Shown one piece after another: positions 27,761 through 40,817 of a stretch of 64,000 nucleotides of DNA. The stretch lies in assembly GCA_964479955.1 (NCBI GenBank), contig CAYZNK010000001.1:219824-283823 (forward strand), in the 5' to 3' direction. Numbering within the stretch: position 1 is the stretch's first letter; each line of letters begins with the position of its first letter. Source of the stretch: an uncultured Candidatus Saccharibacteria bacterium. Its GTDB lineage: Bacteria > Patescibacteriota > Minisyncoccia > Minisyncoccales > Staskawiczbacteraceae. The notes under the pieces were generated by a model that did no database searches, was not told the origin of the DNA, and saw only the letters and a list, made by a program, of their open reading frames with translations. The translations under genes and the position numbers were made by a program.

Positions 27761-27954
27761 AAATTTATGTCGCCAGTTTCTTGGCGGCGTTTTTGTAAAT
27801 TATTATATTCTTGTTCAGTCATTGGTTTGTAAACCAGCTCAACCATGCGAAGTAGGGAAGCTGCTTTTTCAAAAGCTTCCTCCCGGCTAATCTCCTTACC
27901 GAAGCGATTCTTGTAAATTTCCATAAAAGATATGATTTGTTTATCGGTCAGCAT
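27757..27954 (-). CDS. Small hypothetical protein (65 aa)
   Basis: ORF with 4-nt and 14-nt overlaps with its neighbours. Confidence 0.4.
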   Translation of the reverse strand: MLTDKQIISFMEIYKNRFGKEISREEAFEKAASLLRMVELVYKPMTEQEYNNLQKRRQETGDINL

Positions 27955-28198
27955 GATAAAGCCGCGTTTTTAAAGTTCTTAGACAATCTAAAAAAGCAAC
28001 GGGTTCCACAAGGAGCTCGCGCCTCCAATATCTTTGAATTAAATCGTCTAAGTTTTTATCGCGTTGGAATAAAAAGGTTGCTTTATTATTTTCCCAATTT
28101 ATTGCTTCAATTGGCCGGTTAAAAAAGCATAAGCAATTCGCCAAATTCAAATCAGATGTTTCAAAAAAGTCATTTTCTTTTAGTAATCCTGATTTCAT
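27941..28198 (-). CDS. Small MGE-associated protein (DUF5659-like by recollection)
   Basis: ETSDLNLANCLCFFNRPIEAINWENNKATFLFQRD...LKTRLY matches the pattern I recall for this small phage/plasmid family. Confidence 0.4.
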   Translation of the reverse strand: MKSGLLKENDFFETSDLNLANCLCFFNRPIEAINWENNKATFLFQRDKNLDDLIQRYWRRELLVEPVAFLDCLRTLKTRLYHADR

Positions 28199-28289
28199 AT
28201 TTTTAGAAATTTTAATAATAAAAAAACTATATTCTGGTTTGAATATAGTCCTTTTTTCGGAACGTGTTTGAATTTTAGGCTAAATTAGG

Positions 28290-29081
28290 CTATTCTGGGT
28301 GATTTTTTATGTGGGCCATTTCTAATTGCTTCATGAGTAGAGCAATATTTATTCCTTTGTTTTGCAAATATTCTTTCGTGATTTTATCTCCGGCATATGT
28401 AATCATTCCTTTTTTGCTCCTTTTCGGAAAAAATGCTTTAAGAATTTCTTTTGTGAACCCAAGCTGATAAAGTATATCGGCGATACTTCCGCCGCCAATT
28501 TCTTCTTTAAGAAAATTTGGCAAATCACTTTTCTTTATTGGAGTGTTTGCATTTTTACTTCTTATAAATTCTAGGGTTTCAAAATTAGTTCCCACTGCAT
28601 GCGGTTTTGAAAGGAGGAAATTATTTATCCAGATTTCCCTGTCTTTGACTGTTAGCTGAAAGGTTTCCGGCAATTCAGTTTTGACATTTTTAGTTGCAGC
28701 TATTTTTTCTATTTCTTGTCTTAATTCTTTGATCTCATTAATCAATTTATCTATTTTTTCTGTTTCTGTTTTGGCAACAACTATCTGCTCTGGATTGCCT
28801 GATTTTTGTATTTCAATGTTTTTTTGACGGACATCTCCCAAAGAAAATTCAATTTTTTGAAGCGTTGGGATAATTGTTTTTAAAGTTTCGCCCGCAGGAA
28901 TTAGATAAGTCTTAGCTGAATCGTTCAAATCTTCGGCGTATTTTTTCATCCTTTGCATCTGCGGTTCTAAACTAGCAAGACTGTCAACCAAAAAATCTAA
29001 ATTTGGGATTTGGCAAAAACGGCCATAGAGTTTCAAGCTCTTATCAATATCTTCCAAAATACGCTTATGTATTTCCAGCAT
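28290..29081 (-). CDS. Hypothetical coiled-coil protein (263 aa)
   Basis: AGAGGA SD-like sequence upstream. No family recognised. Confidence 0.45.
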   Translation of the reverse strand: MLEIHKRILEDIDKSLKLYGRFCQIPNLDFLVDSLASLEPQMQRMKKYAEDLNDSAKTYLIPAGETLKTIIPTLQKIEFSLGDVRQKNIEIQKSGNPEQIVVAKTETEKIDKLINEIKELRQEIEKIAATKNVKTELPETFQLTVKDREIWINNFLLSKPHAVGTNFETLEFIRSKNANTPIKKSDLPNFLKEEIGGGSIADILYQLGFTKEILKAFFPKRSKKGMITYAGDKITKEYLQNKGINIALLMKQLEMAHIKNHPE

Positions 29082-29237
29082 AATTTTAGTAATCCTCTAT
29101 AGTAATTTTCGCTTTTATACTGCCACTTTTCAGATATTTTTTCAAGGAAAAGGTGATTAATCATAAAAACCCCTAAAAGTACCCCTTTTTACACCCTTTG
29201 GCAATCTATTTGGAGATTTTTAGGATCTCCCAAAAAA

Positions 29238-29350
29238 CCCGCTGTTTTGCCCTGTTTTGCCGAACAAAAGTTAGTCGTTTTGGTCGTTTATCAAGCTAAA
29301 AGACGAGCAAACGCCCGTCTTTCTCCCAAACCCCTCACAAAACCCCTAAG
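29238..29350. repeat. Non-coding module, copy A (iteron-like TAGTCGTT/TGGTCGTT, GCCGAACAAAAG, GCTGTTTTGCC x2, CTCACAAAACCCC)
   Basis: Shares several blocks with 38666-38850: ttagtcgttttggtcgttt vs ttagtcgttattggtcgttt, gccgaacaaaag, (c)gctgtttt repeats, and cacaaaac(a)ccc. Confidence 0.7.
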
Positions 29351-29364
29351 GATTGCTCAAAACC

Positions 29365-29901
29365 CTATAGTCTTTCATCTATTAGATCCCATTTATTCAG
29401 ATATTTAGAAATATCCCAACCATTAAATCCTTTCCCCGGAGGAATCGCTACTGTACGAACATTGCTATCGTTATGTATTTGCCCTTTTTTGCCGAGTGCT
29501 TTCATCCACATGGAATGGGCTTCCTTAACATTTTTAGACAACTCAGAGGATGGGATAATATAGTATTCAAAATTTTGAGTCGAATCCATTATCGGGATAC
29601 CGCCTAAGATCCAAAAGAAATTATTTCCGTAATCTATCTCGGCTTTTCTGCCAACGCTGCAAGTTTTATCTCCTGGTCTAAAAGTTTTTACTTGAATGTG
29701 TACAAATTTCGTACCGCCTTTATTACTACATAAAATATCAGTATTAGGACAATTTCCCATAGTTACAACTGCTACCAAACCACGACGACATAATTCCCCT
29801 GCAATAAAAAATTGACTGGCACTTCCACGATGAGTTTTGTCTGTTTTCTCGATTGTATGTTCCTCCATGTCTTTATTTTTGTTTTTATTTTTTACCAACA
29901 A
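29365..29901 (-). CDS. PD-(D/E)xK-like nuclease-fold protein (178 aa)
   Basis: GSASQFFIAGELCRRGLVAVVTMGNCPNTDILCSNKGGTKFVHIQVKT fits an E...D...(Q/E)xK restriction-endonuclease-like core (Hjc/YraN-like topology). Confidence 0.45.
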   Translation of the reverse strand: MLVKNKNKNKDMEEHTIEKTDKTHRGSASQFFIAGELCRRGLVAVVTMGNCPNTDILCSNKGGTKFVHIQVKTFRPGDKTCSVGRKAEIDYGNNFFWILGGIPIMDSTQNFEYYIIPSSELSKNVKEAHSMWMKALGKKGQIHNDSNVRTVAIPPGKGFNGWDISKYLNKWDLIDERL

Positions 29902-30869
29902 ATGTTAACGTTTGTTTTGATTTGTTTCTTTAAATAATCTTTAACATCGTATATTCCTCCAACCTGATCGATTAAGCCGTTATCTTTTGCCATTTGACCA
30001 AGCATTGATGAACCGTCAGCCAACTCTGTTACCTTCTTTATGTCCATATGTCTATTTTCGGAAACATATTTGATAAAATTATTGTAGAGGACTTTTACAT
30101 CTCTCATAAAAAGATCTCCCTCTTCTTGAGTTAGTATTTTATCTGGATTTCCGGCATCCTTAAATTTACCTTCGCTTAATTCGTAAAATGTAAGCCCGTC
30201 AGTTGTATTTTTATCAGAGTTTCCAACATAAGACATCGTAACTCCAATACTCCCGACATCTGAATTTGCGGAAGCAATAATATATTTAGCACCGGAGGCG
30301 GCAAGATAAGCAGCTGAATTTCCTCTTTCCCTGATTAAGGCAACTGTTGGCTTTTTTAAGTGTTTTAAAGCTTCAGCAATCTCCCATCCTCCAACTGGAG
30401 AACCACCTGACGAATCGACTTGAAGCAATATAGCTTTTATTGAATTATTCTTGTTTGCTTTCTCTATCGCGGCAGTTATATCTTCCGCAGAAGCAACATC
30501 TTTGCTCGATTGACCGCTACCATCACTTGCTGCATTTTTGTATGTGTAAAGCCCGCCATAGAGTTTAATTCCTTGTACATTGCAATCACCATAAGGCAGA
30601 ACGGGTATTTTTGAATCCGTCAAAATCAATAGCTGCATTAAAAATCCTGTAAGCAAAAATGCTAATCCCAGCAAAGAAATCTTTTTATCCTTCAAAAAGC
30701 CCGCCCTCGTATAAAAATGCCTCTGATCATTACTGACCTCTTTATTCTTATCTAAATCTATTAGTAAATCATCCTCCAACGCTCGTCTTGTTTTTAAAAA
30801 TGGAAAAGCCAGTATCATCGTTCCAGTAATACTGAATAACAAACCTAAAATTTGAATAAAAAATATCAT
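29892..30869 (-). CDS. Two-TM N-terminal domain fused to an SppA/S49 serine peptidase domain
   Basis: VDSSGGSPVGG, KPTVALIRERGNSAAYLAASGAKYIIASANSDVGSIGV (S49 signature context). Two N-terminal hydrophobic helices. Confidence 0.75.
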   Translation of the reverse strand: MIFFIQILGLLFSITGTMILAFPFLKTRRALEDDLLIDLDKNKEVSNDQRHFYTRAGFLKDKKISLLGLAFLLTGFLMQLLILTDSKIPVLPYGDCNVQGIKLYGGLYTYKNAASDGSGQSSKDVASAEDITAAIEKANKNNSIKAILLQVDSSGGSPVGGWEIAEALKHLKKPTVALIRERGNSAAYLAASGAKYIIASANSDVGSIGVTMSYVGNSDKNTTDGLTFYELSEGKFKDAGNPDKILTQEEGDLFMRDVKVLYNNFIKYVSENRHMDIKKVTELADGSSMLGQMAKDNGLIDQVGGIYDVKDYLKKQIKTNVNICW

Positions 30870-30872
30870 ATT

Positions 30873-31184
30873 TTAATATTTAAAATCCTCTTCCTCAAAT
30901 TTATCTCTTATTATTTGTTTTCTGAGTCTTAAAACTTCGAATTCTCTTTTGAGTTGATTGTTTTTATCTCTTTCCATCATAAGCATACCCTCCAATGCTT
31001 CCGTGGAATATTTCACGTCCTCACGGACTTCCTCGGTAATATCCTTCAGCTTAAAAAATAGTTTTTCTACTTTAATTTTAGCAGCCAAAAGTTCAATTTC
31101 TTCATCAGACTTTTTAATTTCAGCTTCCTTTTCTTTTAGCCGACTAATTGTATCGTCCAATAGTTGTTGTTTAATGTTTTCCAT
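30873..31184 (-). CDS. Small coiled-coil protein (103 aa)
   Basis: Highly charged heptad-like sequence. 3-nt and 5-nt gaps to its neighbours. Confidence 0.45.
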   Translation of the reverse strand: MENIKQQLLDDTISRLKEKEAEIKKSDEEIELLAAKIKVEKLFFKLKDITEEVREDVKYSTEALEGMLMMERDKNNQLKREFEVLRLRKQIIRDKFEEEDFKY

Positions 31185-31189
31185 ATTTT

Positions 31190-32272
31190 TTAATACTTTT
31201 CTAAAATTTTTATATAATTTGTTAACCTGTTCAAAAGTTCATCGTACGTAACAAAATTTATATTATTTAAGGAAAGGCACAAGAGTCGGAAGTCATCCCT
31301 CTCTTTTTGAGAATTAAGATTATTTGATCGACCAGCAAGAATTATTCCCCGAGGCCGCAAAACTTTTAAATTAATTTTAAATTTATCAAGTATATAGCCC
31401 CTCACAGCTGGTCCATTGTTGGTAATGTTTTCGATATAGTTCTCTACTTGAATTATGGCCCTTGAAATTTCTGAATCCCAAAAAAAGTTACCTCTTCCAG
31501 CATCCTCCTTAAGTAGCGGCGTAGTAGGTTTTTTAATCTCTAAAATATCGAGATAATTATCATGTGTAACTATGGAAAAATCAGGAAATTTTGTATTGCC
31601 AATACCAATGTTCATTTTTTCTATTGCGGATATATATCCCTGCTGAATTAAAAGTATGTTTTTCTTTATATATTTTTGCCAATACGTTTCTCCATACGTT
31701 CCTCCAATAGCCTTTTCTAAATCAGAAGATAATTCCTTTAATGATTTTATTTGCGCTTTGGCTTTTAAAAAATTTACAGCGCTCAGAGATTCCGAAGCGA
31801 TAAATTCGGGCAGAAACTTGTTTATTGAATCTCTATCTTCTGGTGAAAGTCGTGGTAAAATTTTCTGACCTAACAGATTGGAAATTGTGCCGGGTACGTA
31901 AACTGGAGTTTCTTCTTTTTCGAAAAAAGAAGGATAAACAAGCGCAAAATAATTTAAAATTATGTCGTTTTTTATATCTCTTGTTCTTTCCCAAAGCTCC
32001 CCATTAATCATTTTAAGCGTCTTTTGAGAAGTCCTTATGCGATGTATATTCCTTTCTAGTATTATAGAATCTGTTTCTTCAGTTATTATCCATTGAAACT
32101 TTTTGAATTTTCTTTTTAAAACTTCTAATATATGCTTACCGAAATTTATTCTTCCGTCCGTAGAAAGGCCTTTTGGCCTTTTGCCCTCATAATAAATCTT
32201 CGTGCCTTTCAGCGCATCACCATAACTCCTATTTTTTACAATTACATATTTCTTTTTTGCTATTCTCGCCAT
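31190..32272 (-). CDS. Shedu-like (DUF4263-type) PD-(D/E)xK nuclease
   Basis: C-terminal FPDFSIVTHDNYLDILEIKKP (D...ExK), SRAIIQVENY, RGIILAGRS and NINFVTYDELLNRL match the DUF4263/SduA pattern as I recall it. Confidence 0.6.
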   Translation of the reverse strand: MARIAKKKYVIVKNRSYGDALKGTKIYYEGKRPKGLSTDGRINFGKHILEVLKRKFKKFQWIITEETDSIILERNIHRIRTSQKTLKMINGELWERTRDIKNDIILNYFALVYPSFFEKEETPVYVPGTISNLLGQKILPRLSPEDRDSINKFLPEFIASESLSAVNFLKAKAQIKSLKELSSDLEKAIGGTYGETYWQKYIKKNILLIQQGYISAIEKMNIGIGNTKFPDFSIVTHDNYLDILEIKKPTTPLLKEDAGRGNFFWDSEISRAIIQVENYIENITNNGPAVRGYILDKFKINLKVLRPRGIILAGRSNNLNSQKERDDFRLLCLSLNNINFVTYDELLNRLTNYIKILEKY

Positions 32273-32283
32273 AATTTTTACTA

Positions 32284-32460
32284 CTAAAATTTTTCAACCT
32301 CTTTTTCAGCATTAGAACAGGCCGGGTAATTCCGACAAACAAGATTTTCAGTTGCTTTTTTTGCCGGCTCTCCTTCTCTTTTTAATCGTGCATATTGAGA
32401 AGGTTTCAGCGGCTCTCCGCATGTTTCACATTTTTCAATATCTTTATCTAAGGTTGCCAT
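32284..32460 (-). CDS. Zinc-ribbon mini-protein (58 aa; absent from the supplied ORF track, presumably because it is under 60 aa)
   Basis: Hand translation: MATLDKDIEKCETCGEPLKPSQYARLKREGEPAKKATENLVCRNYPACSNAEKEVEKF. Cys pairs CxxC and C-x5-C. Begins 1 nt after the methyltransferase stop. Confidence 0.45.
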   Translation of the reverse strand: MATLDKDIEKCETCGEPLKPSQYARLKREGEPAKKATENLVCRNYPACSNAEKEVEKF

Positions 32461-32461
32461 T

Positions 32462-34405
32462 TTATCTTTCGATTAATTTTTTTGTAGAATTTTCTACGAT
32501 TTCCACTTCTTTATCTGTAAGTCCATACAATTTATAAACTATTTGATCTATTTCATTCTCATACTCTTTAACTTTTTCCTGCTTTACAGGATTGTCCAAG
32601 TAATCTTGCGTTTTCGTAATCGCTAAAATTTTATCAACAAGTTCAATAAATGGTTTTTGTTTTGCTTCTGAAGCTTCTTTGATTGGTAATTTTTTAATAT
32701 GAGCTGGATAAATATCCAAACCAAAACTAAAAAACTTTTGGAATAACCACTTAAAAAGATTCGAGTTTATAAGTGATAATAAAAATAATAGATCATATTG
32801 CTTAGATAACTTGATTCTACCACCATTAATAATACTTTTAAGCTGGCTATACTTGTCTAGTGGAAGTGAGTAATATGGGATGATTACATACACTGTATTA
32901 TCGGCGTAAAGATTATCCTGATCGTAAAGAAAAGACAACCCATCCCTTCCAATTATTCTCTTGCCAATCAATTTGTGATTTTCAAACAACTCCTGATATC
33001 TTGGCTCCCTATGGACATCTGGCGTGAATTTCAAAAATAATGTTTTATTTACTCGCCATCTTGAAATATATTTTCCTTCTATGTATGGTTTTAAATTATT
33101 TGCCTTCTGTTTATAGATAAATTCATCTTTTTTAACGCCCTTTTCAGCGTTATGAAGAACCGCTCCATATATAACAAAGCATATCTCTGAAAGATTTATT
33201 GTGTCTTTATAAATTTTTCTTTGTAGATCTGATTCTTTTTTCCCGATATCCAATCTAAAATTCATATCCGGCAATTCCTTAAAAAAATTTTGCTTGATCG
33301 TTGAATACCTGCTCTCAGTATTTATAATCATCCCTAGTTCAGAATTATCGCCGTTTTTTAAATCTGAGTCATACAGATTTAGTAACTTCACTTCGTCATT
33401 GGACGTATTCTCGTTATTATCAACGATAGTTATTGCTGTATCTACGGTTGCTTCAAAAACCTTTAAATTAAAATTGATAATTCTTAGTAAATGTTTATGT
33501 AGTAAAATTTCTCTTATTTTAGATCCATATTTTTGGGAAAAATATTTATTGCTAGTAATAAAGCAAAGATTACCGCCCTTCTTTAGCAATTGCAGAGCTT
33601 TTTCGATAAAAATAATATAAATATCGTAATGAGCAGTTGGTGAGTGAAATTCTTTTTCATAAAAGGGTTTTAACTCTCCGGTCATGTTTTTTGATGACAA
33701 ATAAGGCGGATTCGCGATCACAATTCCGAACCCTTCTTTTATTCCAAACATCCATTCAGGATCAAACCAAGTTGATGCCTTGTGACCGAACGGATCCCAT
33801 GTCATCAAACTTCCTGTCAAATTTGCCATTCCTCCTCTCTTTTTTTCTATAACCTTCTCAAACATCCTTTTTTGCGCCTGGACAAACTGCAATTTTAATT
33901 TCTCTCTTTCTACTCCTGAAGCATTAAAAAACATCTCACGAAGTTCTTTAAGTTCACCTATTCCACTCTCGTCTTCAAATAAACCCTGCTGATTACTCGT
34001 CGACGGCTTTGGGAGACCAATTAAGCTATTTGCGGTTACAAATTTAAAGTCCAGATTTGGGAGTGGCTCTATCCCTCTGTTTTCCAAGTCATCATGGACG
34101 CTTTCATCAACGATTAAAGTTAAAAAACACCTCAACCTTGATATTTCTGTTGCGATTGGTTGAATGTCAACGCCATAAATATTTTTTCTTACAACTCCCA
34201 ATTTGCGAATATAATCAAAATTCTCGTTCTCGAATTCTCTTTTAATCACCCTTTTCATCTCAGGAGAAACGTTTTGGATTTGCTTTTGAAACCAAATCCT
34301 TCCATCAGCATCCACTTGCTGTAAAATGAAAACTATTTTCTGCAGCGCTCCAATTGGAAAAGCGCCCGAACCGCAGGCTGGGTCCAATATCTTCACACTC
34401 TCCAA
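32462..34405 (-). CDS. Eco57I/TaqI-like gamma-class N6-adenine DNA methyltransferase with a TaqI-like C-terminal specificity domain; N-terminally short (starts at motif I, TTG start only)
   Basis: Motif I ILDPACGSGAF, NIYGVDIQPIATEISRLRCFL, LPNLDFKFVTANSL, and motif IV FGIVIANPPYL. Confidence 0.85.
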   Translation of the reverse strand: MESVKILDPACGSGAFPIGALQKIVFILQQVDADGRIWFQKQIQNVSPEMKRVIKREFENENFDYIRKLGVVRKNIYGVDIQPIATEISRLRCFLTLIVDESVHDDLENRGIEPLPNLDFKFVTANSLIGLPKPSTSNQQGLFEDESGIGELKELREMFFNASGVEREKLKLQFVQAQKRMFEKVIEKKRGGMANLTGSLMTWDPFGHKASTWFDPEWMFGIKEGFGIVIANPPYLSSKNMTGELKPFYEKEFHSPTAHYDIYIIFIEKALQLLKKGGNLCFITSNKYFSQKYGSKIREILLHKHLLRIINFNLKVFEATVDTAITIVDNNENTSNDEVKLLNLYDSDLKNGDNSELGMIINTESRYSTIKQNFFKELPDMNFRLDIGKKESDLQRKIYKDTINLSEICFVIYGAVLHNAEKGVKKDEFIYKQKANNLKPYIEGKYISRWRVNKTLFLKFTPDVHREPRYQELFENHKLIGKRIIGRDGLSFLYDQDNLYADNTVYVIIPYYSLPLDKYSQLKSIINGGRIKLSKQYDLLFLLSLINSNLFKWLFQKFFSFGLDIYPAHIKKLPIKEASEAKQKPFIELVDKILAITKTQDYLDNPVKQEKVKEYENEIDQIVYKLYGLTDKEVEIVENSTKKLIER

Positions 34406-34797
34406 TGCATCGATAATTTTATTTTTGTATCTTCACTATAAGTATCTAGTTTTTTTTGCAGGGTTATAAATTCCTTTTCAATTTTAACAGGATCAATCGG
34501 TGTAATTTTTGCTTTTGTAATTAAAACAGCCACGGGATTAATATCCACGGCTATTGACGGTCGGCCCATTAATTTTGACTCGACAATTGTTGTTCCGCAG
34601 CCTCCGAACGGGTCAACTATAAAATCTCCCTCTCTCGTATATTTTTCGGCTAATCGAGAAACAATTTGAGGTATAAATTTCGCGGGATAGCGATGATATC
34701 CATGGGTAACATAGGCGGTGTCCTTTCTGGTTTTTTCGGAGAATGACCACGTCTGGTCGACTTTTGTGTTTGCAAATAATGTTTTTGTTGGGCTCAT
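34393..34797 (-). CDS. N-terminal fragment of a second DNA methyltransferase (motif X-like plus motif I only)
   Basis: HGYHRYPAKFIPQIV...DFIVDPFGGCGTTIVESKLMGRPSIAVDINPVAVLITKAK. No (D/N/S)PPY motif before the stop. 13-nt out-of-frame overlap with the next methyltransferase ORF. Confidence 0.55.
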   Translation of the reverse strand: MSPTKTLFANTKVDQTWSFSEKTRKDTAYVTHGYHRYPAKFIPQIVSRLAEKYTREGDFIVDPFGGCGTTIVESKLMGRPSIAVDINPVAVLITKAKITPIDPVKIEKEFITLQKKLDTYSEDTKIKLSMHWRV

Positions 34798-34855
34798 AAC
34801 TTTATTAACTTATTTTGCCTTTTTTTGGATAAAAATGCAACCTTATTTATATCTA

Positions 34856-34884
34856 TTGACTTTGGTAAACACGGGTGCTACACT
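34856..34884 (+). promoter_or_regulatory. Putative sigma-70 promoter of lexA (TTGACT-17-TACACT); would give a leaderless or near-leaderless mRNA
   Basis: The -10 element ends 9 nt before the ATG at 34894. No SD sequence is visible. Confidence 0.4.
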
Positions 34885-34893
34885 TAATATAAC

Positions 34894-35532
34894 ATGGAAA
34901 ACAAAAACAACCAACAAGAGTTATCCACAAACGAAAGGAAGGCGTTGCGCATTATACGCAATTGGTTTTTGCATAAAGGCAGAAACCCTTCTATTAGAGA
35001 ATTGACCAAAGAAATGGGTTTTGGCTCAACCAGGTCTTCTCTTTTATTGGTTAACAGGCTTATAGACAAAAAGATTCTTCTCCGAAAAGATGACGGGGGT
35101 TTAAGAATTTTAAGTAATTTTGGAGAGCACAGGTTTGCTGCCAAAACTGTTGATGTGCCTTTAGTCGGAGTCGTTTCTTGTGGCGCACCCATTTTTGCAG
35201 AAGAGAACATAGAAGCCCTTTATCCGGTTTCGACGACATTGGCTCACCCCGGCTCTCGTTATTTCCTTCTTCGTGCCACAGGAGACTCAATGAATAAAGC
35301 TGGAATAAATGATGGCGATTTAGTGCTGGTAAGGCAACAAGCCACGGCCGATGCGGGCCAGAAGGTAGTTGCGCTGATTGACGACGAAGCCACAGTAAAA
35401 ATTATTCGCCTTACTCCCGACGCTGTAATATTGGAGCCAAGATCAAGCAATAAAAACCACAAACCAATTATCCTTTCCAGAGATTTTCAAATTCAGGGAG
35501 TTGTAATCGCAACTGTCCCGATTAAACATTAA
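34894..35532 (+). CDS. lexA: LexA-family repressor (wHTH plus S24 autopeptidase)
   Basis: N-terminal LexA DNA-binding-like PSIRELTKEMGFGSTRSSLLLVNRLIDKKIL. Cleavage-site region VVSCGAP (Cys-Gly, as in UmuD). Catalytic GDSM and the Lys in EATVKII. Confidence 0.85.
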   Translation: MENKNNQQELSTNERKALRIIRNWFLHKGRNPSIRELTKEMGFGSTRSSLLLVNRLIDKKILLRKDDGGLRILSNFGEHRFAAKTVDVPLVGVVSCGAPIFAEENIEALYPVSTTLAHPGSRYFLLRATGDSMNKAGINDGDLVLVRQQATADAGQKVVALIDDEATVKIIRLTPDAVILEPRSSNKNHKPIILSRDFQIQGVVIATVPIKH

Positions 35533-35602
35533 TTAGGCAAATAAAATTACTATAATTATATCATTTAAATCAAGGAATTGAGCTGGGCATTTCCAAGTTT
35601 GA

Positions 35603-35845
35603 ATGAAAATTACAATGAAAAGAGATATCCATGTAGTTCCTTACAATGGAGATTGGGCTGTTAAAAAAGAAGGCGTAAAGCAGCCGGTGTCAGTGCATCA
35701 CAAAAAAGCCAATGCCGAAGTTAAAGCTATCCAACTTGGCAAACAAACTAAAGTCGAAGTCGTTTATCATGGCAAAGACGGCAAGATTCAGGATTCTGAT
35801 AGTTATGGCAAGGATCCGCATCCGCCAAAAGATAAAAAGTTTTAA
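35603..35845 (+). CDS. DUF2188-family small protein
   Basis: HVVPYNGDWAVKKEG...HGKDGKIQDSDSYGKDPHPPKDKK matches the DUF2188 pattern. Confidence 0.6.
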   Translation: MKITMKRDIHVVPYNGDWAVKKEGVKQPVSVHHKKANAEVKAIQLGKQTKVEVVYHGKDGKIQDSDSYGKDPHPPKDKKF

Positions 35846-35847
35846 TT

Positions 35848-37389
35848 ATGAGGATTAAAGATTTCTTTAGAAAGATATTTTTTTATTTTTCAAAGCTGAT
35901 AAGAAGAAATAAATTCCCAGTTCTTGATAAATACACAAAAGAATATATCACTTATTTTAATCACCTTTTTGCTAGAGCATCTAACGCTAATGGTTTTGAT
36001 TTTCTTTGTACTATTCTGAGGGTAGAGGGTATAACAAGCGGTCATTGGGATGCTTTTGTAGAGGCCGAAGAAGCACTAATGGATTTTAGCAAAGTCCTTA
36101 GGAAAATTTCCAGGAAAAAACATTCAAAAAGAGCTTTAAGGCTAGCGTTATTTTTATATTGTCATTCCACAGAAATGTCAGCTCCGTATGAAATTATTGC
36201 CAACCTGTTAAGTTGTTGTCAGAGTAAGTCCTACAGGATGTATCCCTTTAGTGAATTGGTCAAAGTAATACAGAAAGAAGGGACGTTTCCTGAAAGGAAA
36301 TTACCAAGCCCGGTTAAAAAAGTTAAATATATCAAGCAACTTGCTGATAATTGTGGCGAGTCAAGGATTGTGGAAATTATTGAGAGTTTTTTCCATCCGG
36401 AATTGAGAAACGCTTTTTATCATTCAGATTATGCAATATCGGAAGATGAATTCAGAATTATACAAGGTAGGAAAATAGGCGATGAAGTAATCTCGTTAGA
36501 AAAATTATCTGAAATTCTAACTAAATGCTTTGCATTTTATTCAGCGTTTTTTATTGCTTACAACAGAACGAAAAAGGACTTAGCTCTTGAAAAAAAATTC
36601 CACCGTTGGCCAAATTATGAAGTTTTGGAAATTTTGTCTGATAAGGATGGTTTAACGGGATTCAAAGTCCATTTCCCAAATAATACCAGCGCTTTTTTTG
36701 AAAGGAAAAAATATAAAGGCACTATGGGGATGAATCTAGGTCCAGAGAATGAAGGAATTAGTTTATTTATAGGAGACATAGAATCTTATAAAAAAGCAGA
36801 AGACTGGTTTGTAAATGGGAAACCGTTTGATGAATTTGGGACTAGATATAATAAATATGGATATTGGAAACCCATTATATTTAGAGGCAATAGCGACAGA
36901 ATCCAAAGTAAGGCAGTCGATATGACAGAGGATAAAATTGTTCAAGGATGCCTTTTTTATATTTTTTCAACTGGACACAAATCCATTGAGTTTACAATTA
37001 AAAGTAAAGAAAAATTATTTGGAAGAGATGAATATTCAAGACCTCTATTTGGGAAAAACAAAAATTTCGTTATCAAAAATTTAGGTATAAATAGTAATGG
37101 GATTTACTTGTATGACGGCTCTGTTTATTTAGATTTAGTCGATGTTAAATCTGTTAAAGGTGGGATCAAAAAAATAAATAGTTGCATTGATAACTTCAAA
37201 AAAATTGATCCACATCTTGTGAGTTGTCTTAAATACCAACTTTATCACTCTGCTGCACCTCAAAAGAATAGCAATGGAACTTTTTCTATTGTGCTCAGTA
37301 TGGATAGCCCTCGAGGAACCCTTGTTGCCTCCGATTTAGCAATATTTCCGAAACAAGATTGGAAGATAAAAGAAGAATGGATTTATTAA
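35848..37389 (+). CDS. Hypothetical 513-aa protein: all-alpha N-terminal half with an RNxxxH (HEPN-like) motif, and an unknown beta-rich C-terminal half
   Basis: ELRNAFYHSDY at residues 185-195 (motif nt 36406-36423) fits the HEPN Rx4-6H signature. 2-nt gap after the DUF2188 gene. Confidence 0.45.
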   Translation: MRIKDFFRKIFFYFSKLIRRNKFPVLDKYTKEYITYFNHLFARASNANGFDFLCTILRVEGITSGHWDAFVEAEEALMDFSKVLRKISRKKHSKRALRLALFLYCHSTEMSAPYEIIANLLSCCQSKSYRMYPFSELVKVIQKEGTFPERKLPSPVKKVKYIKQLADNCGESRIVEIIESFFHPELRNAFYHSDYAISEDEFRIIQGRKIGDEVISLEKLSEILTKCFAFYSAFFIAYNRTKKDLALEKKFHRWPNYEVLEILSDKDGLTGFKVHFPNNTSAFFERKKYKGTMGMNLGPENEGISLFIGDIESYKKAEDWFVNGKPFDEFGTRYNKYGYWKPIIFRGNSDRIQSKAVDMTEDKIVQGCLFYIFSTGHKSIEFTIKSKEKLFGRDEYSRPLFGKNKNFVIKNLGINSNGIYLYDGSVYLDLVDVKSVKGGIKKINSCIDNFKKIDPHLVSCLKYQLYHSAAPQKNSNGTFSIVLSMDSPRGTLVASDLAIFPKQDWKIKEEWIY

Positions 37390-37425
37390 AATTGTTTAAT
37401 TCTTGATTGGGCTTAAAACAAATTT

Positions 37426-38610
37426 ATGATACATAAAAAGTTAGAAGATATTCTAATCGGAGATATAAATTATCTTGTTGAGAATAATATTCAAGAAAGA
37501 AAAACCCTTGAGTATAAGTCAGTGCTACCCAGTAATTCTGATGGGGATAAAAAAGAGTTCTTAGCTGATATATCATCTCTTGCCAACACAGAGGGTGGAG
37601 ATTTAATTTACGGGATTAAGGAAGTTGCCGGAATTCTGCAAAAGGATATTGGATTTATAACTCAAAACATAGATGCAGATATAGCCCGGCTGCATAATTT
37701 AATTAGGGACGGAATATCTCCTAGGATAATAGTAGAAATAAAAACTCTTGATTGCGTCGATGGGAGAAAAATTCTTATTTTGAGAACCAAGGCCAGTGTT
37801 GAATTTCCTCACAGAGTTATTCTTGGTGCCCACGACAAATTTTATAGGCGAAATACAAATGGCAAATATGCAATGGATGTCGGAGAATTAAGGGGGGCGT
37901 TTAATAGATCAGGAGAATTAGCCGAAAGGATCAAAAGTTTTAGGAGTCAAAGAGTTTTTGATATAAAATCTGGAGAAACACCAAAACAGTTAAATGATGC
38001 TTCGTCTTTTTTTGCGATACATATTATTCCGATGTCTGCATTTAGTACTTCATTTAGTATTGGTTCGGAGAAACTACTTTCATTGAGGAACGCACAGCAC
38101 GCTAATTCTTTTTGCCCTTTATATGCAAGCGGATGGAGCTATAGGATAAATCTTGATGGAGTCGTAGCTTACTCTCATAGCGGAGAAACTATTAGAAATT
38201 ATACTCAACTTTACCGAGACGGGAGAATTGAGGCAATAGAAACAACGATTTTAAATAAAGGGGACGATCAAGAAAAAATGTTTTTGCCGATGGCTGCGCT
38301 TGAAAATATGATTATGCAATATACTGGAAAAATGCTAGGTCTTTTATCCGGATTTGAATTTCAACCCCCATTTTATATTTATTTATCTTTTATTGGCGTA
38401 AAGGGATTCACCGTCCTCGAACCGCCATCTCGGATTTTAGATCAAGAACCAATTACGCAAGATGATCTGTTTCTCCCAGAAATTATTATTGAGAGTTTCT
38501 CAGATAATTTACACCACAAATTTAGACCAATATTTGATATGATTTGGAACGCAGCGGGTATAAGCAGGTCGTTAGATTTTGATGAAGAAGGAAATTTTGT
38601 TCCAGTTTAG
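37426..38610 (+). CDS. Schlafen/AlbA_2-domain protein with an unknown C-terminal domain
   Basis: ERKTLEYKS...KKEFLADISSLANTEGGDLIYGIKE is the AlbA_2 (Schlafen-type divergent AAA/DNA-binding) signature. Confidence 0.6.
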   Translation: MIHKKLEDILIGDINYLVENNIQERKTLEYKSVLPSNSDGDKKEFLADISSLANTEGGDLIYGIKEVAGILQKDIGFITQNIDADIARLHNLIRDGISPRIIVEIKTLDCVDGRKILILRTKASVEFPHRVILGAHDKFYRRNTNGKYAMDVGELRGAFNRSGELAERIKSFRSQRVFDIKSGETPKQLNDASSFFAIHIIPMSAFSTSFSIGSEKLLSLRNAQHANSFCPLYASGWSYRINLDGVVAYSHSGETIRNYTQLYRDGRIEAIETTILNKGDDQEKMFLPMAALENMIMQYTGKMLGLLSGFEFQPPFYIYLSFIGVKGFTVLEPPSRILDQEPITQDDLFLPEIIIESFSDNLHHKFRPIFDMIWNAAGISRSLDFDEEGNFVPV

Positions 38611-38665
38611 GTTTTTCAAATAAGATTTCTTGTAATGTATGCATTACAAGAGCCTAAAAGGCGCC

Positions 38666-38850
38666 TCTCTCCCTTCACAAAACACCCACATTCTCTTGTA
38701 TTATACTTGCGCTAAAAGTTAGTCGTTATTGGTCGTTTGCCGAACAAAAGCTTTTGCAGCTCTTCAGCAGCTTTTACTGCAAACGTCAGCCGTTAAATCA
38801 CCGTTTTAAAACGGTGATTTCGCTGTTTTTCCGCTGTTTTAACAGCGGCG
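38666..38850. repeat. Non-coding module, copy B (homologous to 29238-29350), plus a perfect 26-nt palindrome
   Basis: ctctcccttcacaaaacaccc, gctaaaagttagtcgttattggtcgtttgccgaacaaaag, palindrome aaatcaccgttttaaaacggtgattt (38795-38820), and cgctgtttttccgctgttttaacagcgg. Confidence 0.7.
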
Positions 38851-39047
38851 GTCCATTCTCATTTAACTGTTAATCGACTGTTTTATCAGTCTAATTTTAA
38901 TTGTTGGGTTAATACTGCTTTTCCTGCATCGAATGGCTTTACTACCATATCCGCGTTTGTGCCTTCGGCGGTCAGGTTGGGGATTGAAATATACTCTTTT
39001 TGCCCTTGAATTATAGTCTTAACCTGCCACACTACGTTGCGCATTTT

Positions 39048-39088
39048 AAACGCCTCATGCTGTCCGCCGGCTGGCGGATGAGGCGTTT
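39048..39088 (+). repeat. Composite hairpin AAACGCCTCAT...ATGAGGCGTTT enclosing the TCCGCCGGCTGGCGGATG core (left flank of the PurH-like gene)
   Basis: Outer 11-bp stem and inner ccgcc/ggcgg stem, with T-rich sequence downstream. Same stem family as 40894-40924 and 47557-47596. Confidence 0.7.
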
Positions 39089-39209
39089 GACTTTTTCTAT
39101 TTTTTACGTTAATTTTGACTATCGTGTTTGTTTGCTTAAAAGAGTGCAAACTCTTTGGCAACCAAGCGGTTCGTTGACATTTTGTTCAATTAGAGAAAGA
39201 GAGATAGTC

Positions 39210-40817
39210 ATGAGCCAGCCAGATAAGTGGGCATTGATTTCTGTTTGCAACAAAACGGGTATTTGCGAATTTGCGCAAGAGCTTGTTGGTTTGGGGTGGA
39301 AAATTATGGCTTCGGGAGGCACGGCAAAAGCGTTGACCGAAGCTGAAATCCACGTGAAAGATGTTGCCGAACTCGTTGGCGGCGATGCGATTCTTAAGCA
39401 CCGTGTTGTCACGCTTTCACGCGAACTTCACGCTGGACTTCTCGCTGACAAGAAAGATCCCGAACAGGTCGCTGAAATGGAAAAACTCGGCTTGCCAATC
39501 ATCGACATGGTTGTTTGTGACTTCTATCCGTTGCGCGATGCAATCGCCAAACCCGGAGCCACCGTTGATTCGGTGGTGGAATTGACTGACATCGGTGGAC
39601 CCACCATGGTTCGTTCGGCGGCCAAAGGTGGCAGGATTGTGGTTTGCCGTTTTGAGGATCGCCAGCGCCTTTTAACCGCACTACAATTGGGCCACATTTC
39701 TCCATCGGTGTTGGAAGAGTTGCGCGCTCGTGCCGAGTTTGAAGTTGCCCGCTATTGCATGGATTCTGCGAGATTTCATAGTGCTGGCGGATTTGAGGGA
39801 TTTTTTGGCGAGTTGACAGTTAATCTGCCAAAAGGCGAGAACGGATATCAAACTCCGGCTGCGCTATACAAGGACCCGGATGTTGCCAATCCCTTTGGAT
39901 TAGACAAGTACCTTGTTCTTGATGGCGTGCCATTGAGTTACAACAACTACACAGATATCGACCGGTTGTATCAGACCATGTTGCACATCCTTGCTGCATG
40001 GTCGCTGAATTTTCGTTGTGCTCCATATATTGCCGTAGGCGTTAAGCACGGAAACGCTTGCGCTGCCGCTGTTGGCACAGATGTTTGTGAGGTTGTTAGG
40101 AAAGCCGCAATCGGAGACAACCGGGCAATGTTTGGCGGCCTTATGATGTGTAATTTTCCGCTTGATGGAGAATTGGCAAAGACCATAGTTACATCTGGCA
40201 TGAATGGCAGGACACAAAAGTTTGATAGCGTCATCGCTACTGGTTTTAACCAGGATGCCATGAGATTTTTCCAGCGTAAGGGTGGCCGATGCAGAATTGT
40301 TCGCGCGCCGTTTGGACTGGGAAAAGGTCTGGGAATCGCCAACAAGCTGTTCCGCCAAGTGGAAGGCGGATTCCTGGTGCAACCCGGCTATGGTTTTGTG
40401 CCAGATTTCAGCAAGATGCAAGTTTGCGGAGTCCCTGGCAGGGATTTCACAAAGGATTTGGCTTTGGCTATTGCTGTTGGAAGTACATCCAACAGCAATA
40501 CAATTACCATTGCCAACAACGGCATGCTTTTGGGCAACGGCGTTGGCCAGCATGACCGCGTTGGAGCAGCCGAACTGGCAATCAAACGCGCCCGCGACGC
40601 CGGACACGACAACGAACTTGAGGGGGCTTCCGCTTACTCGGATTCCTTTTTCCCGTATCCTGATGCGCCAAAAGTTCTGATTGACGCAGGCATCCAGGCT
40701 ATATTCAGCACTTCGGGCAGCATCAATGACAAACTGACGCATGATCTTTGCAGGGAACGAGGCGTCATTTTGTACCAAATGCCGGACAGCGAAGCGCGCG
40801 GATTTTTCCGCCACTAA
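39210..40817 (+). CDS. Divergent PurH-like protein (MGS-like/IMP cyclohydrolase plus AICAR transformylase domains), visibly GC-rich
   Basis: ALISVCNKTGICEFAQ, ASGGTAKAL, DFYPL, TDIGGPTMVRSAAKG, GENGYQ, SYNNYTDIDR, GVKHGNACAAAV, MFGGLMMCNF, GGFLVQ, GVGQHDRV, YSDSFFPYPD, and C-terminal RGFFRH. These align in order with PurH motifs, but many near-invariant residues differ. The ATG at 39210 is preferred (AG-rich RBS); the track ORF start at 39000 runs through the hairpin. Confidence 0.75.
   Translation: MSQPDKWALISVCNKTGICEFAQELVGLGWKIMASGGTAKALTEAEIHVKDVAELVGGDAILKHRVVTLSRELHAGLLADKKDPEQVAEMEKLGLPIIDMVVCDFYPLRDAIAKPGATVDSVVELTDIGGPTMVRSAAKGGRIVVCRFEDRQRLLTALQLGHISPSVLEELRARAEFEVARYCMDSARFHSAGGFEGFFGELTVNLPKGENGYQTPAALYKDPDVANPFGLDKYLVLDGVPLSYNNYTDIDRLYQTMLHILAAWSLNFRCAPYIAVGVKHGNACAAAVGTDVCEVVRKAAIGDNRAMFGGLMMCNFPLDGELAKTIVTSGMNGRTQKFDSVIATGFNQDAMRFFQRKGGRCRIVRAPFGLGKGLGIANKLFRQVEGGFLVQPGYGFVPDFSKMQVCGVPGRDFTKDLALAIAVGSTSNSNTITIANNGMLLGNGVGQHDRVGAAELAIKRARDAGHDNELEGASAYSDSFFPYPDAPKVLIDAGIQAIFSTSGSINDKLTHDLCRERGVILYQMPDSEARGFFRH

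Follow-up and report, generated by a model that had tools for sequence, protein, structure and literature searches.

Comparison of the window (the whole 64,000-nt stretch of DNA analyzed here) with related elements showed that, as judged from sequence, positions 25.2–39.04 kb form one mobile element of 13.9 kb integrated at a tRNA-Asp gene. Its single-element architecture, its borders, and the grammar of the repeat units in its two border modules, A and B, were all established in this way. We give somewhat better than even chances to the whole explanation taken jointly, namely, one element whose border modules act as terminators and candidate protein sites. The element is integrative and probably replicative, and its family is large, Patescibacteria-associated, equipped with a large serine recombinase (LSR), and inserted at tRNA 3′ ends. 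As a circle, the element would have a conserved backbone composed of a promoter, the genes for the 263-aa, DUF5659, 65-aa, 91-aa, and Rep O-like proteins, and the recombinase gene plus its tail; the rest would be a cargo bay, with modules A and B as its two non-coding borders with the backbone.

Integration at tRNA-Asp and division of the integrase gene

The integration target, tRNA-Asp (GTC), was detected by ARAGORN and Rfam at 25141–25219 on the plus strand, and the crossover core on the attL side, GCGCCA, is part of its 3′ end (25214–25219, plus strand). As in other LSR elements, the junctions share a short core only, GCGC(CA), at 25214–25219 and 39039–39042. The integrase is adjoined by the same tRNA in L176–L180 and L185. 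On the attR side, homology to L187, L195, L199, and L178 stopped exactly after ...ACGTTGCGC. To the right of the element, the chromosome probably resumes with a hairpin read from the sequence at 39049–39089 on the plus strand, AAACGCCTCAT...ATGAGGCGTTT plus a T-run, which is likely to be the tRNA operon's own terminator; terminator hairpins are also found at the analogous post-junction position in L178, L195, and L199.

The integrated (truncated) form of the large serine recombinase, consisting of 548 aa, is encoded at 25178–26824 on the minus strand and contains Resolvase, Recombinase, and Zn_ribbon_recom domains (Pfam; PF00239, PF07508, and PF13408). Its last 10 residues and stop codon come antisense from the 3′ half of tRNA-Asp: the protein runs ...STRWR and then tRNA-antisense GQGDLNPRSPP*, with the C-terminus ...STRWRGQGDLNPRSPP*. 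A tRNA-antisense peptide after the conserved W forms the C-terminus in 76 of the 120 top homologs. The detached 3′ part of the gene, comprising 49 sense codons (NVVWQVKTII...QQLKLD), was located at 38886–39042 on the minus strand on the basis of codon-phase substitutions, the reading frame, and an unsplit homolog. Its stop codon is at 38886–38888, and it ends at the core GCGC (39039–39042), which is the attR junction; when the integrase frame is carried on across this core, a 587-aa protein results. Among the window, L187, and L195, 14 of the 16 variable columns at 38934–39016 fell in one codon phase. The unsplit homolog P0120 ends ...WLRIVNDVRTIFQRQKEYIYIPDLSPQGQI, matched by the window tail ...WRNVVWQVKTIIQGQKEYISIPNLTAEG; unsplit integrase homolog genes occur in L196 and L206. 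L178 (integrase identity of 72%) carries an in-frame tail of its own, located at the opposite end of a 6-kb element, and its junction (...ACGTTGCGC/A) is identical to that of the window.

Judging from these reading frames, the attachment site is inside the recombinase gene, and integration separates residues 1–538 (left) from the last 49 codons (right). Because the crossover falls inside the recombinase frame, at the position of the tRNA CCA end, the integrated gene lacks its last 49 codons and is completed by tRNA-antisense codons; because only the extreme C-terminus is lost, the integrated copy keeps all catalytic and DNA-binding domains.

Since the last 49 codons of the integrase sit beyond module B, we regard 25.2–39.04 kb as one element. 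The initial annotation had considered two elements in tandem, an integrase-bearing one at 25.2–29.35 kb and an integrase-less one at 29.35–38.85 kb; A and B would then be homologous right ends. A and B are homologous and in the same orientation, and close relatives differ in cargo after A, as accretion predicts. However, the in-frame integrase tail and the sole att junction with the chromosome lie to the right of B (38886–39042), and tblastn with integrase tails gave no match around 29.36 kb in either the window or L176. The A border has no GCGCCA core, P-arm motif, or tRNA fragment, so that the internal junction of islands accreted at one tRNA (a tail, core, or tRNA fragment near 29.36 kb) is absent. 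Furthermore, L178 and L199 have the same layout, with backbone, cargo, and tail in a single unit, and the block order of A is unlike that of B, indicating that the two are not equivalent ends. These findings refute the tandem arrangement, which we consider extremely improbable. L199, the closest complete relative, is apparently intact; its backbone is 93% identical to that of the window, and it has both ends and different cargo.

Backbone genes and cargo bay

The gene for a wHTH protein resembling O-like replication initiators (HTH_36; Pfam PF13730) is located at 26899–27498 on the minus strand, and its product matched the phage families PHROG 391, 270, and 678, "replication initiation O-like", with E-values of 1e-7 to 4e-5. 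Other relatives have a primase and AAA_25 at this position. The backbone operon (27485–29081, minus strand) contains genes for 91-aa, 65-aa, DUF5659 (27941–28198), and 263-aa (28290–29081) proteins, and the DUF5659/263-aa gene pair is swapped for others in L176. The region upstream of the operon (29082–29211, minus strand) is near-identical in L176 and L200 despite different flanking genes. Inspection of this region by eye suggests a minus-strand promoter-like sequence, TTGAAA-N20-TATAAA; a promoter scan made no call for it at 29082–29211.

The variable cargo bay (29360–38627), annotated with Pfam and PADLOC, encodes a 178-aa protein, an S49 peptidase, a 103-aa protein, and Shedu SduA, followed by an Eco57I/type IIG-like methyltransferase plus a methyltransferase fragment, and then a LexA/S24-like repressor (34894–35532), DUF2188, a 513-aa protein, and Schlafen AlbA_2. 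Elements with different cargo between the modules, as envisaged in the initial annotation, do exist: the same bay holds an EcoRI-like protein in L176, a HinfI RM system and a His phosphatase in L199, a trypsin-like protein in L187, and Fic in L195. Among relatives, the cargo changes exactly at the outer edges of A (29359) and B (38628). L176 and L185 (integrase 96% identical) follow the window to 29359 and then carry different cargo, and similarity to L176, L199, and L200 ends at approximately 29359–29366. L187 matches the window from 38628 to 39042, with other cargo on the left and another flank on the right.

Composition of the border modules

Comparison with relatives gave conserved extents of approximately 29212–29359 for module A and 38628–39042 for module B, both larger than first described. 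The modules had been described as non-coding; the look-alike stretches are real, but their extents had been set too small, and the right third of B (38886–39042) is the 3′ end of the integrase gene.

Module A is composed of two copies of CTGTTTTG plus GCCGAACAAAAG, two copies of T(A/G)GTCGTT, and a hairpin-bearing block W. A palindrome read from the sequence at its inner end, GGAGAT-N7-ATCTCC (29212–29230), is kept in L176 and L200 and missing in L199. Unit_X (CGCTGTTTTG/CCCTGTTTTG + CCGAACAAAAG; 29240–29270, plus strand) is conserved in L176, L185, and L200–L205. The adjoining Z repeats (TTAGTCGTT/TTGGTCGTTT; 29271–29289, plus strand) form a segment that is hypervariable across orthologous A modules, being TTAGTCCCTATTAGTCCTTT in L176, unrelated in L200, and absent in L199. 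Block W (29295–29359, minus strand) contains a 7-bp hairpin, AAAGACG...CGTCTTT (29299–29322), which, when read on the minus strand, resembles a terminator for the cargo operon. The hairpin is followed by TCACAAAACCCC and AAGGATTGCTCA, and the last base common to relatives is 29359.

Module B is composed of a hairpin, W, two copies of T(A/G)GTCGTT plus GCCGAACAAAAG, four sets, and the integrase tail. The terminator-like hairpin (38628–38651, minus strand) has a 10-bp stem and is the first block in common with L187; no second such palindrome was found within the window. Block W of B (GCCTAAAAGGCGCC..TCTCTCCC..TCACAAAACACCC; 38652–38688, plus strand) is a diverged copy of that of A, and unit_Z (38714–38750, plus strand) consists of AAAAG, TTAGTCGTTA, TTGGTCGTTT, and GCCGAACAAAAG. 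The four sets (38756–38891, plus strand), found by a pattern scan with an exact 11-nt spacing inside 136 nt, each consist of a 5-mer, the same 5-mer 11 nt on, and then the reverse complement. Their 5-mers are GCAGC (38756–38781), CCGTT (38790–38820), CGCTG (38821–38847), and ACTGT (38866–38891), and the CCGTT set includes the perfect 26-nt palindrome at 38795–38820 that had been reported earlier and was confirmed here. L187, L195, and L199 differ by the gain or loss of whole sets. The 11-nt periodicity of GTT is strongest in module B, which contains the four highest-scoring segments in the 64 kb, and none of 500 shuffles equaled it.

Intrinsic terminators were predicted at 29316–29301 (minus), 38651–38628 (minus), 38795–38820 (plus), and 38876–38891 (plus). 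This assignment leaves the Z repeats and the extra direct copies unexplained. The palindromes plus T-runs are explicable by termination alone. Rfam 15 covariance models gave no match to a known RNA family, with sub-threshold chance hits only, and covariation lent minimal support to a folded RNA (1 of 35 pairs).

Unit grammar shared by the two modules

The A/B blocks listed in the initial annotation were all found where it had placed them, and their similarity exceeded that of all 1483 random interval pairs of sizes equal to A and B: exact matches of at least 8 nt summed to 75, compared with a random maximum of 53 and a 99.5th percentile of 42. Between 29238–29350 and 38666–38850, exact same-strand blocks of 15, 14, 10, 10, 9, and 9 nt were present. 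The longest matches were TTTGCCGAACAAAAG (29256 and 38736; 15 nt) and AAAAGTTAGTCGTT (29266 and 38714; 14 nt), and further matches were TTGGTCGTTT (29280 and 38729), CCGCTGTTTT (29239 and 38831), CGCTGTTTT (29240 and 38821), TCACAAAAC (29335 and 38675), and GCTAAAAG (29295 and 38711). A and B were each other's best non-self match within the window, GCCGAACAAAAG, TGGTCGTT, and AAAAGTTAGTCG were confined to them, and a search of the 64 kb found the module blocks nowhere else.

Both modules are built from one unit family, in which two 10–11-nt direct repeats, each ending in GTT plus a T/A run, precede a third, T/A-rich partner, either GCCGAACAAA or an inverted copy; unit_X, unit_Z, and unit_G each have two 10-nt repeats and G(T)CCGA(N)CAAA. 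This shared construction explains the "permuted" block order of A and B. A runs unit_X, Z repeats, and hairpin W, and B runs hairpin, W, unit_Z, and sets, so that GCCGAACAAAAG stands before the Z repeats in A and after them in B. Thus, the block order does differ, and the unit listing bears out the earlier impression that the two loci carry pieces of a short tandem array in different phases.

Five elements, those of the window, L187, L199, L190, and L183 (a Saccharibacteria MAG), carry an identical 25-nt Z repeat within module sequence that otherwise shows only 72–84% identity. Variant units alter both repeats together, with GGGG in L183 and L190 and TCCC/TCCT in L176. The identity of the GTCGTT unit in five elements suggests that it is a candidate sequence-specific protein site. 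On the other hand, unit_X and the Z repeats are missing from border A of L199, as are the hairpin and W from its border B, and the two borders of this element, compared with each other, had nothing in common. Because the A/B duplication is absent in this closest relative, it is dispensable, and paired sites are not essential. None of these units were found in the more distant members L178, L193, L194, and L206.

Possible functions of the border modules

In the explanation that we prefer, the hairpins would serve as terminators, keeping transcription of the backbone insulated from that of the cargo and vice versa, and the phased repeats would be putative binding sites for an element-encoded DNA-binding protein. 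The candidate binders are the 263-aa/DUF5659 pair encoded beside module A and the Rep O-like protein. The bound protein would form a nucleoprotein structure beside attP, upstream of the backbone promoter, for the control of replication or excision. Both the protein binding by the repeats and its purpose are what we infer. The borders would also be homology anchors for cargo swapping because they are conserved among otherwise mosaic relatives.

Speaking against putative binding sites, a unit holds no more than two copies of each repeat type, and the sets are unlike in sequence, contrary to what would be predicted for a single iteron-binding Rep. The repeats had earlier been proposed to be iterons or operators for the Rep-like protein, and in one form of this proposal A and B would be a two-site replication origin comparable to ori and crr of satellite phage P4. 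The phased binding-site form and the O-like nature of the HTH_36 protein were upheld. In addition, the backbone encodes such a protein, two loci carry the same repeat types with helical phasing, module A accompanies O-like Rep genes in the window, L176, L199, and L200, and the primase/AAA_25 relatives have other intergenic sequence. However, there are two 10-nt copies per repeat type only and no run of identical iterons, and the Z repeats of L176 differ at 5 of 20 positions from those of the window, although its Rep is 90.5% identical. The A-side repeats are missing in L199, and an AT-rich unwinding element or DnaA box was not identified. The 11-nt phasing is present, but the several (usually three or more) near-identical repeats of an iteron-type origin are not; with regard to a P4-like ori and crr pair, the same repeat type lies at two distant loci in the window, and this arrangement is absent in L199. 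The varying repeats track swapped 263-aa/DUF5659 genes rather than Rep. This co-variation comes from four elements. We consider a two-site origin rather unlikely.

Similarly doubtful is the possibility that the repeat units are specificity-coded cis sites that define compatibility groups, with A and B as origin- or partition-like control regions bracketing the defense-gene bay. The fast-swapping 263-aa/DUF5659 pair, or Rep, would then read the 4 nt at the center of these paired 10-nt repeats (GTCG, GGGG, or TCCC) as a specificity core.

The borders may alternatively be structural or insulating DNA, in which stacked terminators are combined with repeats that have no dedicated binding function, and the likeness of A and B is a scar left when related elements exchanged cargo by unequal or homologous recombination. 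The terminator-like hairpins at both borders, oriented against cargo and backbone transcripts, are consistent with this, as are the coming and going of whole sets between relatives, the absence of the duplication in L199, and the mosaicism around the borders. We nevertheless regard it as quite unlikely, given that the non-hairpin 25-nt Z repeat is perfectly conserved in five elements from different hosts, that variant units change both repeats in concert, that termination does not require the additional direct copy found upstream in each set, and that the s1 stem is only 4 bp.

Cargo exchange at dedicated sites had also been suggested. The finding that cargo differs exactly at the outer edges of the modules weakly favors this, but no sign of a dedicated site-specific reaction was found. 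In one form of this suggestion, the direct W copies (or Z units) flanking the cargo would be recombination sites for a circular cargo module, in the fashion of integron cassettes or dif modules. In its favor, W sits at the cargo-proximal edge of A and, past one hairpin, of B, in direct orientation, and the cargo boundaries of relatives fall at these edges. However, the element of the window has no second recombinase, W has no paired inverted core, only one dif-like 10-6-10 palindrome was found and thus no core pair, L199 has W at a single border, and the W copies are diverged with indels. Such cassette exchange is very unlikely.

Implications

Characterization of mobile elements in the Candidate Phyla Radiation has hardly begun, and this locus supplies a testable map with exact ends, backbone, cargo bay, and border modules. 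The integrase has thousands of close homologs beside tRNA genes. Because its gene is divided, the free and the integrated element are predicted to make different enzyme forms, which may act as a directionality or stability switch; the division also provides a simple rule for finding both island ends computationally, with a tRNA-antisense tail at one and an orphan tail ORF at the other. The border modules mark sites of defense-gene exchange. If they are specific protein sites, they could be vector-building handles for organisms with almost no genetic tools, and if the specificity-code reading were true, it would reveal a family of replicative serine-recombinase elements in Patescibacteria that is very large and has not yet been described.

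Comparison with known systems

LSR elements and prophages (phiC31, Bxb1, and A118 type, and islands with an LSR at one end) resemble the present element in having Resolvase, Recombinase, and zinc-ribbon domains in an enzyme at the element's end, precise junctions at which attL and attR share few bases, and cargo. Known LSR att sites are minimal, about 40–50 bp. In contrast, the crossover here is within the recombinase reading frame, at the tRNA CCA-end position, and long repeat arrays lie directly beside the P arm.

In P4, ori and crr are two distant loci with the same initiator-binding repeats, and plasmids and lambdoid phages have iteron origins in which a single initiator binds many copies of the same iteron. 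Short phased repeats several kilobases apart and an element-encoded initiator are shared with these systems, whereas here each repeat occurs twice, neighboring units are unlike, and a close relative does without the second locus. Conserved flanks surround cargo or defense hotspots in P2/P4-like prophages, satellites, and ICEs. Here, too, a conserved backbone lies beside a bay that swaps unrelated defense genes in close relatives, but the flanks, instead of being core genes, consist of non-coding repeat arrays, and in the window these show partial homology to one another.

The integrase genes of SSV-type archaeal tyrosine integrases are partitioned on integration (PMC7253208, PMC8371274). As in those systems, attP is in the integrase ORF, a tRNA gene serves as the target, and integration leaves the gene parts at opposite ends of the element. 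The present element works alike and is not a member of that group, since its enzyme is a serine recombinase; moreover, its hosts are bacterial (Patescibacteria), and only the extreme C-terminus is removed. Mycobacteriophage BPs and its relatives show integration-dependent immunity (PMC4557955), in which, as here, attP is in the 3′ end of a gene and integration alters the encoded C-terminus. In those phages the repressor is affected and the integrase is a tyrosine recombinase, whereas in the present element the recombinase itself is affected.

Similarity and organization of modules A and B

Module A (29238–29350; fuller extent approximately 29212–29359) and module B (38666–38850; fuller extent 38628–39042) were compared by reading the intervals and listing maximal exact matches. 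All blocks that the initial annotation had assigned to both modules were present in one orientation. The longest exact match was TTTGCCGAACAAAAG (15 nt; 29256 in A and 38736 in B), followed by AAAAGTTAGTCGTT (14 nt; 29266 and 38714), and further matches in the same orientation were TTGGTCGTTT, CCGCTGTTTT with CGCTGTTTT, TCACAAAAC, and GCTAAAAG. The core words were unique to A and B within the 64-kb window, each module was the best partner of the other in the window, and their summed exact-match length was 75, compared with a maximum of 53 among 1483 random interval pairs. The similarity is therefore real and exceeds that of every random pair, so that chance resemblance of AT-rich DNA does not account for it. 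The reported 26-nt palindrome at 38795–38820 was also found.

When all related loci from other genomes (designated by L-numbers) were scanned for CCGA(N)CAAA, one recurring unit emerged, in which two 10-nt direct repeats are followed at once by G(T)CCGA(N)CAAA; three versions of it were seen. Unit X (CGCTGTTTTG CCCTGTTTTG CCGAACAAAAG) occurred in module A of the window, L176, and L200; unit Z (TTAGTCGTTA TTGGTCGTTT G(T)CCGAACAAA) in module B of the window, L187, L199, L190, and L183; and unit G (TTAGGGGTTA TTGGGGGTTT TGCCGAACAAA) in L183 and L190. Module A consists, in order, of a palindrome (GGAGAT-N7-ATCTCC), unit X, Z repeats without a proper third part, and block W, which includes a 7-bp hairpin (AAAGACG...CGTCTTT) resembling a minus-strand terminator. 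At the Z-repeat position, module A of L176 and L185 carries TTAGTCCCTATTAGTCCTTT. Module B consists of a hairpin with a 10-bp stem that likewise resembles a minus-strand terminator, a diverged W, unit Z, four sets (s1–s4), and the tail of the integrase gene. Each set contains a 5-mer (GCAGC, CCGTT, CGCTG, or ACTGT), its repeat exactly 11 nt on, and then its reverse complement, and the CGCTG set resembles the X repeats of A. GTT recurs in module B with a period of 11.0 nt, which was reached by 0 of 500 shuffles and gave the strongest windows in the 64 kb. Whole sets were gained or lost among relatives, with two more in L187 and one more each in L195 and L199. According to this unit grammar, GCCGAACAAAAG belongs to unit X in A, left of the Z repeats, and to unit Z in B, right of them. 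Modules A and B are built from one phased repeat-unit family, which explains both their similarity and their differing block order, and the view that they hold differently phased pieces of an array was correct. Outside the element, the intergenic sequence at 22504–22531 (TCCGC TTCCGC TTCCGC CAACT GGCGGA) shows the same direct-direct-inverted pattern as the sets of module B.

Location of attP inside the recombinase gene

The left flank of the element contains LepA, tRNA-Met, a 226-aa HTH gene, a second tRNA-Met, and tRNA-Asp (25141–25219). The large serine recombinase gene (25178–26824) lies on the minus strand and is followed, on the same strand, by genes for a replication-initiator O-like HTH_36 protein (Rep), a 91-aa protein, a 65-aa protein, DUF5659, and a 263-aa protein, and then by module A. 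From the A side, the cargo encodes a 178-aa protein, S49 peptidase, a 103-aa protein, Shedu SduA, an Eco57I/type IIG-like methyltransferase, a methyltransferase fragment, a LexA/S24-like repressor, DUF2188, a 513-aa protein, and Schlafen AlbA_2; module B and purH follow. The window is from a genome of Patescibacteria-like character; the named homologs of the integrase and the 263-aa protein were from Patescibacteria, Paceibacterota, and Minisyncoccia MAGs, and no exact database record was found for the integrase as listed (548 aa).

The recombinase ORF extends 42 nt into the 3′ half of tRNA-Asp, with the C-terminus ...STRWRGQGDLNPRSPP directly before the stop codon, and the W in this sequence corresponds to the tRNA CCA in reverse complement. 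The same overlap was found in L176–L180 and L185. At the other end, 38886–39042 was conserved at 83–90% in L187, L195, and L199, and the homology of all three ended precisely after ...CCACACTACGTTGCGC. Since 14 of 16 variable columns in 38934–39016 fell in a single codon phase, this region is coding. When the left end (from 25218) and the right end (to 39042) were joined on the minus strand, the recombinase frame stayed open, yielding a 587-aa protein ending in ...STRWRNVVWQVKTIIQGQKEYISIPNLTAEGTNADMVVKPFDAGKAVLTQQLKLD. An unsplit homolog, P0120 (L196), ends in ...WLRIVNDVRTIFQRQKEYIYIPDLSPQGQI, which matches the window tail, and in a second unsplit homolog (L206), the TGGCGC core likewise lies within the gene. 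In the window, residues 1–538 are encoded at the left end and completed by a peptide antisense through tRNA-Asp, and the native final 49 codons, which lie at the right end, continue the frame across the GCGC core (split parts, 25178–25219 and 38886–39042). The L178 recombinase, 72% identical to that of the window, has its own tail (RNVVYNVRTEIQRQTEYVYVPILSNL, then stop) at the opposite end of its 6-kb element (split parts, 3304–3385 and 9400–9429); the tail is in frame across TGG/CGC, and the junction ...ACGTTGCGC/A is as in the window and is followed by a terminator hairpin. Among the best 120 homologs, 76 end in a tRNA-antisense peptide after the conserved W, 30 stop ≤4 residues from W, and approximately 8 keep a native-type tail. 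The in-frame joined tail, the unsplit genes, L178, and these endings place attP within the recombinase gene, at the position corresponding to the tRNA 3′ end, and show that the gene is cut by integration.

The element thus delimited spans approximately 25218–39042, with one pair of ends, the right one past module B. No displaced tRNA-Asp 3′ fragment was found at its far end, the crossover being at the extreme tRNA 3′ end. The circle junction is predicted to be ...CTTAACCTGCCACACTACGTTGCGC/CATCGTGTACTAACAGAGCCC..., and the empty site tRNA-Asp ...CCCTGCCCGCGC/ATTTTAAACGCCTCATG.... The hairpin at 39049–39089 is most simply the original tRNA-operon terminator. The initial annotation had read the similarity of A and B, which stands, as possibly marking the ends of two elements integrated in tandem. 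No integrase tail, core, or tRNA fragment adjoins module A, and the tandem reading was therefore rejected.

The 52-aa minus-strand ORF right of module B, once considered a small AbrB-like DNA-binding protein, had no Pfam match and one database relative, and was then identified as the integrase tail. As annotated, purH (39000–40817) starts at a TTG that falls within the terminator region, and residue 87 is the first to be covered by a Pfam domain; the true start is probably near 39250. An Rfam scan of 39090–39250 at gathering thresholds was negative. Elsewhere, 56001–57000 has a GC content of 0.53 against a background of about 0.35, with no rRNA or other Rfam match.

Backbone and cargo borders in related loci

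L176, L185, and L189, whose recombinases are 96% identical to that of the window, matched the window in two stretches, one running from the tRNAs to 27945 and the other spanning 29096–29359, beyond which they diverged into EcoRI-like cargo. L199, which has both element ends and a 93% identical backbone, matched 25193–29126, 29295–29366, the LexA-like gene (79%), and 38713–39042, and its intervening cargo was a HinfI restriction-modification system and a His phosphatase. L187 matched 38628–39042; to the left of this stretch lies trypsin-like cargo, and to its right, different flanking DNA. These matches indicate that conservation on the backbone side stops at 29359 and that conservation on the tail side starts at 38628 in the window and L187 and at 38713 in L199. 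Modules A and B are the two borders between backbone and cargo; other cargo adjoins them in L176 (EcoRI-like), L199 (HinfI), and L187 (trypsin-like). L195 carries sets and the tail beside a Fic gene. In L190 and L183 (Saccharibacteria MAG), two units and several sets lie between an AbiE pair and a junction-like CACTACG/CCA, next to which is a terminator.

L200–L205 share 28196–29367 with the window and have a different recombinase. In L200, the gene for a small 184-aa resolvase immediately precedes, on its upstream side, that for a 556-aa large serine recombinase (6123–8349). Since L200 combines its own recombinases with module A and the 263-aa/DUF5659 genes of the window, the recombination module has undergone mosaic exchange. 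The LepA–tRNA-Met–tRNA-Met–tRNA-Asp neighborhood (20590–25219) was also found in L177, L178, L193, L197, and L198, and it holds a different integrase-family member in each Patescibacteria genome, indicating a recurrent integration hotspot. The 226-aa HTH_23/HTH_28 (transposase-type HTH) gene at 24282–25023 lies between the two tRNA-Met genes, which are just 12 nt apart in L185, so that this gene has the appearance of a small insertion in its own right; a similar 226-aa gene adjoins the integrase of L193.

Within the cargo bay (29360–38627), the LexA/S24 (CI-like) gene at 34812–35519 was the sole part kept in L199 (3057–3728; 79% nucleotide identity), and L187 encodes a 33% identical homolog (2–904). 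This repressor may belong to the core of the element, as a regulator, and not to the cargo. The methyltransferase fragment, a 134-aa ORF at 34393–34797 adjoining the 647-aa Eco57I-like methyltransferase, matches no more of the N6_N4 DNA methylase profile than the C-terminal third of that profile, which suggests decay or past rearrangement within the cargo.

Putative functions of the repeats and hairpins

The 25-nt Z repeat was identical in five elements from different hosts, within modules of 72–84% identity, and in variant repeats (GGGG; TCCC/TCCT), both copies changed together. The recombinase, Rep, and the 91-aa and 65-aa proteins of L176 were 82–96% identical to those of the window, and DUF5659 only 29%; in L176, an unrelated gene takes the place of the 263-aa gene, and the A-side Z repeat is also altered. 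L200 encodes a 59% identical homolog of the 263-aa protein and has unrelated sequence at the A-side Z position. Covariation across only four elements weakly favors the 263-aa/DUF5659 pair over Rep as the putative binder; a rival reading, a P4-like two-site origin, would assign the sites to Rep. No family or PDB relative was found for the 263-aa protein. DUF5659 was discarded as an excisionase-like protein, its PDB sequence match being an LRR repeat protein, and its AlphaFold model (pLDDT 80) gave no significant fold match. As a LexA Cheo-box (CGAAC-N4-GTTCG), GCCGAACAAAAGTTAG was also discarded: there was one 1-mismatch site, the other units had half-sites only, and at ≤2 mismatches, 8 sites were found against 12 expected, with no enrichment.

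From their placement and orientation, hairpin W of A would stop the minus-strand cargo operon ahead of the backbone promoter, the hairpin of B would stop backbone or tail transcripts before the cargo, and sets s2 and s4 would stop plus-strand cargo transcripts before the tail. RNAalifold predicted conserved hairpins with negligible covariation (compensatory pairs, 1/35), and both strands folded equally well (z about −5.5), as expected of DNA palindromes. An Rfam search of both modules at permissive thresholds gave nothing credible, and three module patterns run against viral contigs yielded chance matches or none, with no multi-block locus.

Border A of L199 lacks the palindrome, unit X, and the Z repeats, its border B lacks the hairpin and W, and the two have no mutual similarity beyond chance. 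The distant members L178, L193, L194, and L206 have other intergenic sequence, and no repeated module was found in the distant relatives L177 and L178. The gaps in L199 and the other sequence of distant members count against an essential paired function of A and B. At the position equivalent to module A, L178 (4904–5213) and L193 (3865–4197) have in common a different conserved, highly structured sequence (GCCTAACCC..hairpin..TATGGCATAAAA, then long hairpins; AGGCATAAAAAACGGTTCAGGTAT twice in L193), possibly a non-coding RNA.

With moderate confidence, we infer that the hairpins insulate transcription of backbone and cargo, that the phased repeats are putative binding sites through which a protein of the element controls replication or excision, and that cargo is exchanged by way of the conserved borders, which provide anchoring homology. 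Rival readings take the borders as terminator arrays of a purely structural nature that bear the scar of a recombination, or as recombination sites of the cassette type. The palindrome at 38628–38651 was rejected as a dif-like site or recombinase core, since the window holds a single copy.

Comparison with known systems

The border arrays are reminiscent of iterons, of the P4 ori/crr pair, and of hotspot flanks; iterons in the strict sense consist of several identical repeats, which the arrays do not have. In the literature searched, no report of serine-recombinase elements in Patescibacteria/CPR was found, and no title or abstract among those retrieved described a serine integrase gene truncated in this way at an attP/tRNA. 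This element gains interest from its split serine-integrase gene and from belonging to so large a family (approximately 3300 integrase-homolog loci) in a poorly known phylum. It works like large-serine-recombinase islands and differs from them in having attP inside the recombinase ORF. An attP inside the integrase ORF is known from archaeal SSV-type tyrosine integrases (PMC7253208, PMC8371274), and the integration-dependent immunity of mycobacteriophage BPs (PMC4557955) resembles the element in concept.
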